Positions 41,465 to 45,194 are shown, numbered from the stretch's first letter. The stretch: DNA of 64,000 bases from Candidatus Poriferihabitaceae bacterium (GCA_965226545.1 OZ245364.1:1067890-1131889), one strand, 5' to 3'. Numbers and translations are program-made. Notes: generated by a model from the letters alone, not told the origin.

Positions 41465-41711
41465 GGTTGGTTAACCCGTTGGGCATCGTCGCCTTGTCCG
41501 GTTGGCTGGCGGGCCGGGCGACTTTGTCGATTTTGTTTTCGACTTCGTTGTCGAATGCGGGCGGGTTATTTGTGACTCGTGTACTTTTACTTGCACTTGC
41601 ACTTTTCACTTTTACCGTCTCGTTATGTAACTTGTAACGCGTCACTTGTTACTCGTCACTCGTCATCCACCGTCGCCGTTATCCGTTTAACCGTTAATAA
41701 TTAATAATTAA

Positions 41712-43676
41712 TTAATCATTAATCACTTCTTCAACACCGCGCAACGACTCGCGCAATAAAAATCCGCCGGATTGACGCGCCCATAATTGCGCATACAAGC
41801 CGCCGTCGCGCAGCAATTGTTCGTGGTCGCCTTGTTCGACGATTTTGCCTTGGTCCATAATCACCAAACGATCCATCGCCGCGATGGTCGATAAGCGATG
41901 CGCGATTGCAATCACGGTCTTGCCGTGCATCAAGTTGTATAAACTTTCCTGTATCGCCGCTTCGACTTCCGAATCGAGGGCGCTGGTGGCTTCATCCAAA
42001 ATTAAAATCGGCGCGTTTTTGAGCAGCACACGCGCGATTGCGATGCGTTGGCGTTGTCCGCCGGAAAGTTTAACGCCGCGTTCGCCAACATGCGCGTCGT
42101 AGCCGGTGCGTCCGGCTAAATCCTTTAAGTCCAAAATAAAATCATGCGCGCGCGCTTTTTTTGCGCAAGCGATAATTTCGTCGAGACTGGCGTCGACTTT
42201 GCCGTAGCGAATGTTGTCGGCGACCGAACGATGCAACAGCGAAGTGTCCTGCGTGACCATGCCGATGTGCGCGCGCAGGGATTCTTGGGTGACGCTCGCG
42301 ATGTCGACGCCGTCGATTAAGATGCGACCGTGTTGTAAATCGTAAAAGCGCAACAGCAGATTAACCAACGTTGATTTGCCCGCGCCGGAGCGCCCGACCA
42401 CGCCGATTTTTTCGCCGCCGGCGACGCGCAACGACACGCCGTCAATCACGCCGCCGCTCGGTTTGACGTCGCCGTAATCGAAGCCAATGTTACAAAACCG
42501 CACTTCGCCTTCGCGCACCCGCAGGCGACTCGCGGTTGCGCGGTCGGTCACGGCGACATCGCGCGCAATCATCAACGCGCCGTCTTCGACCACGCCGATG
42601 TTTTCGAACAAGCCGGCAATCTCCCATAAAATCCATTCGGAGATGCCCTGCAATCGCAACACCAAGCCAAGCGCAAACGCAATCGCGCCGACGCTGATGG
42701 CGTCGCCGCTCCACAGCCACAACGCGACCGCGCCGACCGCGGCGAACAGCAGCCCGTTGATGTAATGCAGGGTGAAGTTCATCAGCGTCGCCAATCGCAT
42801 TTGCCGATGCACCGCTTCGAGAAACACTTCCATGCCGGCGCGCGCGTAATTGTCCTCGCGTTCGGCGTGGGCGAACATTTTGACCGTGTGGATGTTGGTG
42901 TAACTGTCGACCGCGCGTCCGGTGACCATCGAGCGCGCTTCGGCTTGTTGCATCGACACCACGCGCATGCGCGGCACAAAATAAAACAGCGTGCACAAAT
43001 AACCAACCAACCAGGCAAGCATCGGCGCGCCGAGCCGCCAATCGCTTTTGGTAAATAACACCAACGCGGCGCTGAAATAAACCAACACATATAAAATCAC
43101 CTCAGTGACTTTAATCACCGCGTCGCGCACGCCGAGCGAGGTTTGCATCATCTTGGCTGCAACCCGTCCGGCAAAATCGTTTTGATAAAACTCGACGCTT
43201 TGGCGCAGCAAATAACGATGCGTTTGCCAGCGGGTGCGCATCGCAAAGTTGCCGAGGATGCCTTGATGAATGAATCCGTCGTGCACAAATTTAAGCGCCG
43301 GCAACAACACCAACACAATCGCGCCGACCCAAATAATTTGCGCGCCGTGCGCCGACCAAAACGCGCCGCGCGACGGCGCCTCGGTTAACCAATCAATCAA
43401 CACGCCGACAAATGAAAACAACAACACTTGCGTCACCGCAATCGCAACCGACAACGCCGCACTGGCCGACAACACCGGCCAAAACGGTTTGGCGTAATGC
43501 CAAACAAAGCCGACCAAGTTGCGCGGCGGCTTGCGCGGTGCGCGCGGCGGGAACGGGTCGCACAGCCGCTCCAATTGGCGAAAGAAGGCGGAAACAAACA
43601 AGGTGAGTTTTGATTTGCGAGGTGGTGCGGGAAAACGATTGCGAGTGAATGGTTGTGAATAAACGATTGCAAACAA
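41712..43676 (-). CDS. ABC transporter, fused permease/ATPase (exporter type)
   Basis: Six-helix TMD plus an NBD with Walker A GRSGAGKST, signature LSGGQRQR and Walker B ILILDEATS. The track start is a TTG inside the 14-nt repeat array, so the true start is probably downstream (about 43590-43620). Confidence 0.9.
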   Translation of the reverse strand: MFAIVYSQPFTRNRFPAPPRKSKLTLFVSAFFRQLERLCDPFPPRAPRKPPRNLVGFVWHYAKPFWPVLSASAALSVAIAVTQVLLFSFVGVLIDWLTEAPSRGAFWSAHGAQIIWVGAIVLVLLPALKFVHDGFIHQGILGNFAMRTRWQTHRYLLRQSVEFYQNDFAGRVAAKMMQTSLGVRDAVIKVTEVILYVLVYFSAALVLFTKSDWRLGAPMLAWLVGYLCTLFYFVPRMRVVSMQQAEARSMVTGRAVDSYTNIHTVKMFAHAEREDNYARAGMEVFLEAVHRQMRLATLMNFTLHYINGLLFAAVGAVALWLWSGDAISVGAIAFALGLVLRLQGISEWILWEIAGLFENIGVVEDGALMIARDVAVTDRATASRLRVREGEVRFCNIGFDYGDVKPSGGVIDGVSLRVAGGEKIGVVGRSGAGKSTLVNLLLRFYDLQHGRILIDGVDIASVTQESLRAHIGMVTQDTSLLHRSVADNIRYGKVDASLDEIIACAKKARAHDFILDLKDLAGRTGYDAHVGERGVKLSGGQRQRIAIARVLLKNAPILILDEATSALDSEVEAAIQESLYNLMHGKTVIAIAHRLSTIAAMDRLVIMDQGKIVEQGDHEQLLRDGGLYAQLWARQSGGFLLRESLRGVEEVIND

Positions 43677-43857
43677 GCGACTGCGAACAAACGGTTACAA
43701 ACAAACGACTGTGAACAAATAACTGCAAGCAAACGACTGTGAATAAACGATTGCAAACAAACAACTACAAGCAAACGGTTGCGAATAAAAAACCGTGAAC
43801 AAATAATTACAAACAAATGATTGCAAATATAACGACTATAAATAAACAACTGCGAAC
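43633..43857. repeat. About 16 tandem copies of a 14-nt unit, consensus AAACGAYTGCRAAC
   Basis: Units read in register: AAACGATTGCGAGT, GAATGGTTGTGAAT, AAACGATTGCAAAC, AAGCGACTGCGAAC, AAACGGTTACAAAC, AAACGACTGTGAAC, AAATAACTGCAAGC, AAACGACTGTGAAT, AAACGATTGCAAAC, AAACAACTACAAGC, AAACGGTTGCGAAT, AAAAAACCGTGAAC, AAATAATTACAAAC, AAATGATTGCAAAT, ATAACGACTATAAAT, AAACAACTGCGAAC. Confidence 0.95.
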
Positions 43858-43973
43858 AAACGATTAAACGATTGGCGATTCAATTGGCGACTGTGAACAA
43901 ACATCGTGACGCGCATCGCAATAATAACAAACGCGCGGCGCGTGTGCGGCGATGCGGTGATTTCGTCTTCGCG

Positions 43974-45194
43974 TTAGGTTGGTTTCGCCGCGCGTTTCAG
44001 GCGATGGCGCAACATCAACAACGCCGCCGCGATTAACAGCCCGGCAATCGGCGCACCGACCGCAAGATAATCATTGTCGCGCAACACGCCGACCGCAAAG
44101 GCGCCGAGCCCGCCGACCACCATCTCGCAGGCGCCGAGCATCGCCGCGGCCGCGCCGGCGTTTTTGTCGGTGCCCAACATCGCCTTGGCCGGTGCCACGG
44201 CAAACAGCGGCGCCAACCCAAAGGTCATCAGCGCAAACGCCGCAGTAAACGTCGTCGGGTTGATTGCATTCGCGAGCATTGCGCCGAACAGCGCCACGCC
44301 GCCGCACAACACCAACGCCAACCCGATGTTGAGCAGTTGCTCGGCGCGGATGAAGTTAATCGCGCGCATGCAAATTAAACTGCCGACAAAATAGGCGAAC
44401 ACAATCGCCGCTTGAAAATAACCGAAATGTTCGGTCGCGATTCCCAATTGGTTAATCAATACAAACGGCGCGCCGGTGATGAACACATACAACACGCCCA
44501 TGCCGATGCCGGTCAAGGCGGCGTAAAAAATGAAATTGTCATCCGCCAACAAGGCGCGATAATCGGCCAGCACCGCGCGAATTCGTCCGGCGCGCGCACT
44601 GGGCGGCGGCGCCGATTCGGGCAGGTGTCGCCAAATCAAAAACGCCACCAACGCGCCGAGCGCGGCGATTAAATAAAAATTCGCGCGCCAACCAAACCAC
44701 ACATGCACATAGCCGCCGAGTATCGGCGCGGCCGCGGGCGCCAATGCAATCGAGACGCCAAAAATTGCCAAGGCGCGCACTTGTTGTTTCTCCGCAAACA
44801 AATCCTTAAAGATGGCGAGGCACACCACGGCCTCGGCCGCGCCCATCGCGCCTTGCACCATGCGCGCGGCGATTAACCAGCCGATGGTTTGCGCCAAGGC
44901 GCAACCGATGCCGGCTGCGCTAAACAACATCATCGCACCGAGCAACACCGGCTTGCGTCCGAAGCGGTCCGACAACGGCCCGTGAATCATCTGCGCGAAG
45001 CCGAACATCAACACGTTTAAACTCACGGTCAATTTAACCGACACCGCATCGGTCGATAACAACGCCGGCAGATGCGGCAAACTCGGCGTGTAAATGTCGG
45101 TCGACATAATGCTGACCGAACTGGCCGCAATCAGCACAAACATTATCACGCCGAATTTAATCGGCGCGCGATGAGTCGGCGGGGCCTGGCGCAT
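43974..45194 (-). CDS. Bcr/CflA-family MFS multidrug efflux transporter
   Basis: 12 TM helices, with the family-typical N-terminus TDIYTPSLPHLPALLSTDAVSVKLTVSLNVLMFGFAQMIHGPLSDRFGRKPVLL. Confidence 0.88.
   Translation of the reverse strand: MRQAPPTHRAPIKFGVIMFVLIAASSVSIMSTDIYTPSLPHLPALLSTDAVSVKLTVSLNVLMFGFAQMIHGPLSDRFGRKPVLLGAMMLFSAAGIGCALAQTIGWLIAARMVQGAMGAAEAVVCLAIFKDLFAEKQQVRALAIFGVSIALAPAAAPILGGYVHVWFGWRANFYLIAALGALVAFLIWRHLPESAPPPSARAGRIRAVLADYRALLADDNFIFYAALTGIGMGVLYVFITGAPFVLINQLGIATEHFGYFQAAIVFAYFVGSLICMRAINFIRAEQLLNIGLALVLCGGVALFGAMLANAINPTTFTAAFALMTFGLAPLFAVAPAKAMLGTDKNAGAAAAMLGACEMVVGGLGAFAVGVLRDNDYLAVGAPIAGLLIAAALLMLRHRLKRAAKPT

Follow-up and report, generated by a model that had tools for sequence, protein, structure and literature searches.

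A degenerate 14-nt tandem array upstream of an ABC exporter gene of a gammaproteobacterium, probably an old and slowly evolving minisatellite

Background

Tandem repeats of very short units form the contingency loci of Neisseria, Haemophilus and other bacteria. Their units are 1-9 nt long and near-perfect, they undergo high-frequency slippage and vary within clones, and they sit either within an open reading frame (ORF) or between the -35 and -10 boxes. Bacterial minisatellites, or VNTRs, which are used in MLVA typing, are composed of head-to-tail units of 10-100 bp, are non-coding and of local origin, are missing from related species and occasionally differ between strains by the length of whole units. 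The STRR and TAACTGA heptamers of Cyanobacteria, Beggiatoaceae and Bacteroidetes are abundant intergenic direct repeats (MacGregor 2015, PMC4679880). Repeats of the TAACTGA type often lie just upstream of starts devoid of a canonical ribosome-binding site, and RNA-binding proteins have been proposed to act there (PMC4679880).

In this work we focused on a tandem array found in a 64,000-nucleotide stretch of DNA, hereafter the window (GCA_965226545.1 OZ245364.1:1067890-1131889), of a gammaproteobacterium, the genome of which is designated G000. The relatives of this bacterium, as judged from the exporter gene next to the array, are sponge-associated gammaproteobacterial MAGs, some of them labelled Candidatus Poriferihabitaceae. 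The array resembles contingency loci in being a tandem repeat upstream of a gene, but its unit measures 14 nt with a lag-14 identity of 0.55-0.61, and it lies outside the ORF without a credible -35/-10 pair around it on the gene strand. Membership in this class was therefore rejected on two of its defining features, the purity of the repeat and its position. With the STRR and TAACTGA repeats it has in common that direct repeats occupy an intergenic region before a gene without ribosome-binding motif. However, those systems use one 7-nt word at many loci (PMC4679880), whereas here each spacer has its own unit, the 14-mer of the array occurs at a single locus of the genome, and arrays are as common in convergent spacers as elsewhere. 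Membership in this class was rejected too, the unit being unique to one locus and having no 7-nt sub-period. The array shares with minisatellites all the features named above. It differs from them in that its units are far more degenerate (approximately 60% identical pairwise), that the strains seen hardly differ in unit number, that the differences between units are almost purely transitions, and that it belongs to some 700 arrays in a genome of 2.67 Mb, a density far above that of most relatives.

Methods

Tandem arrays were searched with TRF over the 2.67-Mb genome of G000, and the gene set used for the genome-wide repeat counts was a rough one made in this analysis. The periodicity of the array was evaluated against 2000 dinucleotide-preserving shuffles, in which the best lag between 5 and 45 was recorded. 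The start of the exporter gene was studied by comparing its protein with five genomes of the same genus using tblastn.

For the comparison of strains we used 14 MFS and 11 ABC cluster proteins from other assemblies, the ABC cores of which are 99.0-99.8% identical to that of G000. About ten ENA assemblies have ABC and MFS proteins with 97.5-99.8% identity to those of G000. Over-extended protein calls were aligned to the three-frame translation of G000, so that the comparison is one at the peptide level and in one arbitrary frame.

Results and discussion

Structure of the array

The array is located in the spacer between a gene coding for a Bcr/CflA-family MFS efflux transporter and a gene coding for a fused ABC exporter (Table 1). 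The reading made from the sequence alone had placed it in a co-directional spacer with both genes on the minus strand, and profile searches agreed on the two flanking genes, although no NCBIfam equivalog scored above its cut-off for the ABC exporter. The neighbourhood contains an aldehyde dehydrogenase gene and miaA in addition to the genes of the exporter and of the MFS transporter, and none for a regulator. The weak hairpin found 3' of the MFS stop is not above chance, with 4 such sites in the region against 3.8 expected in shuffles.

Table 1. Features of the locus and over-extended proteins of other strains aligned to it (positions in the window)
Feature	Position	Strand	Remarks
Fused ABC exporter (transmembrane and ATPase domains), 629 aa	41712-43601	-	PF00664 and PF00005; start TTG 43601
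Leader of 31 nt, from the array to the true start codon	43602-43632	-	T4C3 run, length varies by 1 nt between strains
Array core	43633-43857		16 x 14 nt, one 1-nt slip
Degenerate distal tail	43858-43899 (end approximate)		AAACGATT x2, then two GGCGAYT-type pieces with indels; +2 nt in one strain
Weak terminator-like hairpin 3' of the MFS stop	43931-43943	-	5-bp stem, loop of 3, T-rich tail
Bcr/CflA-family MFS efflux transporter	43974-45194	-	TIGR00710 252.8 bits (cut-off 200.9); PF07690
P0144 (731 aa), residues 15-93	43864-43628	-	Ungapped over 237 nt, 75/79 codons identical
P0141 (712 aa), residues 2-74	43846-43628	-	Ungapped over 219 nt, 70/73 codons identical
P0016 (659 aa)	near 43647-43669	-	Exactly 14 nt different from G000; proximal ~90 nt visible

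The 16 units of 14 nt have the plus-strand consensus AAACGATTGCGAAC, and the purine/pyrimidine skeleton of the unit is AAAYRRYYRYRARY. The array had been described as about 16 units lying in register over 225 bp, and this description was confirmed. The register is strict for 14 units (43633-43828), after which an extra base near 43829-43830 introduces a 1-nt slip before the last two units (43830-43857). TRF reported a period of 14 (14.6 copies, 64% matches), together with periods of 28 and 42. The base identity at lag 14 is 0.607 inside 43633-43857, compared with a mean of 0.382 and a maximum of 0.46 for the best lag of the shuffles (z = 13.6). A degenerate 14-mer allowed up to 2 mismatches matched 14 times in the window against 4.4 expected, and 10 of these 14 matches fall inside the array.

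The units are approximately 60% identical to each other and diverge by about 23% from the consensus, 12 of the 14 columns being variable. The longest exact match between neighbouring units is 8 nt, and the longest one anywhere in register measures 23 nt, between copies 84 nt apart. Distant units are no less alike than neighbouring ones (identity of 0.55-0.58 at lags 14 to 84), and a higher-order repeat of 28, 42 or 84 nt was rejected on these grounds. A 7-nt sub-period was not found within the array either (lag-7 identity 0.28). The flat identity and the exact matches of at most 8 nt between neighbours indicate that no local duplication has occurred recently, and the profile fits a single amplification burst followed by independent decay of the units.

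Start of the ABC exporter gene

In tblastn searches against the five same-genus genomes, the protein starting at TTG 43601 was aligned from residue 1 with 67-72% identity. The orthologues of these congeners begin with M-F/H-x-x-x-F-F at the codon homologous to 43601, which is ATG in two of the five genomes, and two close strains are annotated with the same 629-aa form of the exporter. These alignments and strain records place the array outside the gene. With TTG 43601 as the start of the exporter, the array stops 32 nt short of the gene, and the earlier statement that the array runs into the start of the gene applies only to the longer ORF 41712-43676, which begins at TTG 43676 inside the array and is an over-extension. 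No Shine-Dalgarno-like motif was detected in the 43602-43632 leader.

Origin of the spacer and distribution of the array

In the five congeners a distance of 4-5 kb separates the MFS gene from the ABC gene, and the genes in between code for an ABC ATPase, for an FtsX-type permease of 836 aa and, in a single genome, for an acetyltransferase. The gaps before the ABC gene are short or array-free in these genomes, the ABC gene lying tightly behind co-directional genes, and the array is absent before the orthologous ABC gene in all five. In G000 no tblastn match to the FtsX-type permease was found anywhere, and the congener ATPase gave paralogue-level matches only. In the simplest reading, the G000 lineage would have lost the intervening block and the array would have grown in the new junction.

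A search of the G000 genome for the 14-mer, which the sequence-only reading had suggested, found the doubled purine/pyrimidine skeleton at the array locus and nowhere else. Among 60 genomes of the family it was found in none, apart from one isolated, chance-like match. No contig of the same species was present in the metagenome collection searched, the best match having 66% amino-acid identity. The spacer and the array are thus restricted to the species. One genome of the same genus, G010, carries unrelated, near-perfect arrays at the orthologous position, which could hint at recurrent use, though G010 is itself repeat-rich.

Tandem arrays in the genome

With the rough gene set, TRF identified 707 arrays outside genes in G000, and arrays cover 12.6% of the non-coding against 1.8% of the coding DNA. 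The periods of the intergenic arrays peak at 12-14 nt, and the arrays across the genome have only a few common 5-mers. The array at 43633-43857 is the longest short-period intergenic array that TRF found in the 2.67-Mb genome. Arrays amount to 3386 bp per 100 kb in G000, to 126-1116 in six of the seven congeners and relatives sampled, and to 2403 in the congener G010.

Between 41 and 46% of the spacers of 40-700 nt contain an array, for every orientation of the flanking genes, and arrays cover a proportion of 0.17 of the convergent spacers, 0.155 of the tandem ones and 0.11 of the divergent ones. Elements acting in promoters or leaders should be rarest in convergent spacers, and the arrays are not, which argues against a switch or an operator. 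A T-rich skew of the sense strand of spacers was considered as a sign of transcription-linked mutation or of leaders and was rejected, the genome-wide skew being only 0.02-0.03 and inconsistent in divergent spacers.

Stability of the array among strains

The gene caller ran through the array in three other assemblies, resulting in proteins of 731, 712 and 659 aa (P0144, P0141 and P0016, respectively), the ABC cores of which are 99.0-99.7% identical to that of G000. P0144 and P0141 have the same unit number as G000 and share its unit-specific variants. Their changes of frame are due only to +2 nt in the distal tail and +1 nt in the T4C3 run adjoining the array. P0016 differs from G000 by one unit, most likely an extra one, as the G000 ORF from 43676 is shorter than the P0016 protein by 5 residues. 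A whole-unit length polymorphism was therefore seen once, in P0016, among three strain comparisons.

The few differences visible between strains include a transversion. Between strains, the array would differ at approximately 2% of its nucleotides, which is 5-12 times the divergence of the ABC gene at non-synonymous sites, an estimate obtained with an assumed dN/dS, and this value would be roughly that of unconstrained DNA. Since the units diverge by about 23% from their consensus, against about 2% between strains, the divergence of the units is much older than the split of the strains.

Taking these observations together, we consider that the array is probably an old, non-coding and degenerate minisatellite, which arose in the lineage of the species and serves as slowly evolving filler. 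A 14-nt word may have been amplified in one burst, by slippage or by unequal exchange, within a spacer that would have been created when some 4-5 kb of genes was lost from between MFS and ABC. The units would then have decayed independently by point substitutions, almost all of them transitions and mostly from G:C to A:T, a course that can be seen in part in the present units. Turnover of units would now be rare, as close strains keep the 16 units with their variants and a single one-unit difference was seen. Some 700 arrays of this genome are each specific to their spacer, and this one most likely performs no regulatory task of its own. It may at most provide AT-rich spacer DNA or, should transcription of the MFS gene continue into the ABC gene, a U-rich leader without structure between the two cistrons. 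Such read-through is reasonable to suppose from the congeners, in which the ABC gene closely follows co-directional genes.

Transition bias of the units

Counted against the consensus, the changes in the 16 units amount to 49 transitions and 2 transversions, and one of the transversions vanishes when the additional base at 43830 is taken as the insertion. Lag-14 comparisons over the in-register part gave 64 transitions, 2 transversions and 117 identities. When tied columns are read as G/C, the changes consist of about 40 from G:C to A:T, 9 from A:T to G:C and 1-2 transversions. The changes in the array are balanced between the strands (C>T 15-23, G>A 17-25), and the mutated sites have no sequence context in common. 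As a baseline for the genome, 276 intergenic arrays, the coding arrays and 145 alignments of paralogues all gave 57-58% transitions.

The significance of the excess depends on how the changes are counted. With each change taken as independent (49:2) the nominal P is 6e-10, with parsimony on a neighbour-joining tree of the units (28:2) P is about 1e-5, and with one event per variant column, the most conservative count (12:2), P is 0.03. All four allele combinations are present in 30 of 66 column pairs, which makes recurrent change likely. The arrays of the genome vary in their fraction of transitions beyond binomial sampling (X2 = 260 on 120 df), and the array at 43633-43857 has the most extreme bias. 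The second most extreme is a hexamer array, RTRYAR, with 19:0 in a convergent spacer, and several smaller arrays are transition-only. Loss of mismatch repair was rejected, at the level of gene content, as a cause of the repeats and of the transition bias, mutS (open frame of 1033 aa) and mutL (645 aa) being intact in G000 and in nearly all relatives. A rise of the transition fraction with the age of the arrays was carried by one 58-copy, probably coding array and was discounted.

The excess of transitions is not predicted by simple neutral decay and could mean selection on the purine/pyrimidine skeleton. The array would then be a multi-site lattice bound once per unit, either by a shape-reading DNA-binding protein or by an RNA-binding protein of the S1, cold-shock or Hfq type, with selection keeping the skeleton while transitions drift. 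Taken as a whole, this explanation survives better than any other alternative and is still unlikely. It is suggested by the identity at lag 14, which is 0.86 for purine/pyrimidine against 0.55 for bases, and by the 49:2 and 28:2 counts, and transversions are more disruptive than transitions to factor binding and to DNA shape in regulatory DNA (PMC5438547). The sense RNA of the array is also unusually unstructured (fold z = +2.16, worse than 100 of 100 shuffles, with z = +0.93 for the antisense strand) and precedes a gene without Shine-Dalgarno motif, a situation for which MacGregor proposed binding of RNA-binding proteins to the TAACTGA repeats (PMC4679880). However, the array is missing before the same gene in every congener, no regulator gene is adjacent to it, 14 bp is not a helical repeat and the divergence between strains is compatible with neutrality. 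The most conservative count reaches only P = 0.03, and the second transition-only array lies in a convergent spacer, where neither a leader nor a promoter is expected.

A local mutation process producing only transitions, on top of a neutral minisatellite, is improbable and comes after the lattice. For example, C and A might be deaminated where the repeat DNA is slipped or single-stranded, or a repeat-directed route might exist that loosely resembles fungal RIP. The predominance of G:C to A:T changes with hardly any transversion and the heterogeneity among arrays, led by this array and the 19:0 hexamer array, would be in line with such a process. It is opposed by the proportion of about 58% transitions in most other arrays and in the 145 paralogue pairs, by the lack of strand asymmetry and of a shared context, and by the intact mutS and mutL. 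The trend with age rests on the one probably coding array, and the few differences visible between strains include a transversion.

A bolder proposal combines the two: the near-perfect retention of AAAYRRYYRYRARY while 12 of the 14 columns toggle would be no mutational accident, and would reflect either 16 sites before the exporter, read by shape in the DNA or by ring size in the RNA, or a transition-only route undescribed in bacteria. We regard it as a doubtful, speculative extension. Our conclusion that the array is an old minisatellite requires neither selection on the skeleton nor a transition-only route.

Regulatory and coding alternatives

A contingency or phase-variation switch, in which frequent gain or loss of 14-nt units would alter promoter spacing or leader length and thereby toggle the ABC exporter, had been put forward from the sequence alone and is now very improbable. 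The array is indeed a tandem repeat upstream of a gene, P0016 differs from G000 by exactly one unit, and indels of +1 and +2 nt are present at the array edges between strains. Nevertheless, adjacent units, 55-61% identical, share at most 8 exact bases and are thus too degenerate for frequent slippage, for which they are a poor substrate. The strain comparison called for by the same reading, made at the peptide level, showed the unit number and the variants to be unchanged in P0144 and P0141 over 219-237 nt and a difference of one unit in the third strain. No credible sigma-70-like hexamer pair was found on the gene strand between 43560 and 43990 with relaxed thresholds, the single weak match being located at the MFS hairpin, and arrays are no rarer in convergent spacers.

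The companion proposal of a dedicated multi-site operator was not supported, as the array is absent before the orthologous gene in the congeners and convergent spacers are equally filled with arrays. An iteron or operator array was rejected on the further grounds that base-specific sites are not kept (12 of 14 columns vary) and that no regulator gene is nearby. Helically phased A-tract DNA, with its spacing of 10-11 bp, was rejected in view of the 14-bp period. A structured cis-regulatory RNA, either a riboswitch or a leader, was also rejected: no Rfam match overlapped the array at E values up to 1, and neither strand folded better than its shuffles.

Translation of the array, either as part of an exporter extended at its N terminus or as an independent hydrophobic peptide of repetitive sequence, can be dismissed as extremely improbable: all three minus-strand frames are largely open and gene callers gave 659-, 712- and 731-aa versions in other strains, but the openness is explained by the low A content of that strand, the period of 14 is not divisible by 3, the orthologues begin at the position of 43601, the exporter frame of G000 contains in-frame stops, and the open frame differs among strains through 1-2-nt indels. 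Neither of the two ORFs across the array, of 138 and 123 aa, has a Pfam match or a homologue among the called proteins, and no separately called ORF across it was found in other strains. The first reading had judged the array to be non-coding and both the TTG inside it and the 138-aa ORF to be spurious, and in this it was right. Because the array is open in all three frames, the start of the ABC exporter has been mis-called in six ways (620 to 731 aa) among near-identical strains, and annotators of genomes of this type should expect such calls.

Conclusions

The genome is unusually rich in repeats, and the array is an element of an ordinary kind in it, apart from one curious signature of mutation or selection. 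As a candidate switch it matters little, since the evidence points to stable filler DNA. Its transition-only divergence, which is common to a few other arrays, could serve to separate mutation bias from shape-level selection, given strain DNA. The locus would also represent a dated case in which the deletion of a gene block was followed by the formation of a repeat-filled spacer, which then froze.

Gene content and annotation of the exporter locus

Comparison of the spacer that holds the 14-nt array with the corresponding locus of a relative (L011) showed that a module composed of an ATPase and an 836-aa FtsX-type permease, together with neighbouring genes, is missing from the source genome, G000. 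In five congeners this module is located between the MFS and ABC genes, and a tblastn search of the whole of G000 gave no match to the permease.

The annotated length of the ABC gene takes six values (620, 625/626, 629, 659, 712 and 731 aa) among strains that share at least 99% identity. This arises because all three frames read open through the array, and indels of 1-2 nt switch the frame joined to the gene. At the other end of the gene, the exporters P0142 and P0143, from two strains, contain insertions of a few residues (PQTV and PQSAQTV) directly before the C-terminal end, at a site that adjoins AT-rich repeats of the TTAATAA type.

Repeats across the genome

Over the whole of G000 the periods of intergenic tandem repeats peak at 12-14 nt (85, 77 and 62 arrays), with no peak at the helical repeat or at multiples of 3, and convergent spacers are at least as rich in repeats as divergent ones. 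One convergent spacer outside the window contains a hexamer array that differs from its own consensus by 19 transitions and no transversions, and ranks second in transition bias among the arrays of the genome.

Spacers upstream of the ABC gene in relatives

In G007 an element of ~90-100 nt is repeated 600 to 100 nt upstream of the ABC gene. It comprises the motif GGGAATCCAGT...ACATG...GCCGACTCC and a hairpin-like part, GGGAATAACGAGTTGGGGACACGGGAATCC, and resembles a dispersed palindromic repeat of small size, which is a style unlike that of G000.

In G010, of the same genus, the orthologous ABC gene is preceded by a 610-nt spacer with three unrelated, near-perfect arrays, between which lie two GC-rich hairpins. 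The word CAAAAGC is present again at other loci of G010, and the repeat style of this genome is therefore dispersed, and purer than that of G000.

Coordinates of the features at the exporter locus, elsewhere in G000 and in relatives
Feature	Coordinates	Unit	Copies
ABC gene, extended annotation	window 41712-43676		
Insertion site, C-terminus	near window 41712-41760		
AT-rich repeats	window 41694-41725	TTAATAA-type	
G000 spacer compared	window 43602-43973		
Module and neighbouring genes	L011:2841-7463		
Hexamer array	G000 C1:419704-419815	RTRYAR (skeleton)	~18
G007 element	L013:6169-6668	~90-100 nt	~3
G010 array 1	within L008:903-1436	TTTGCT-type	~14
G010 array 2	within L008:903-1436	AAATCA	~30 (95% match)
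G010 array 3	within L008:903-1436	AGCCAAA	~17
G010 ABC gene start	L008:1471
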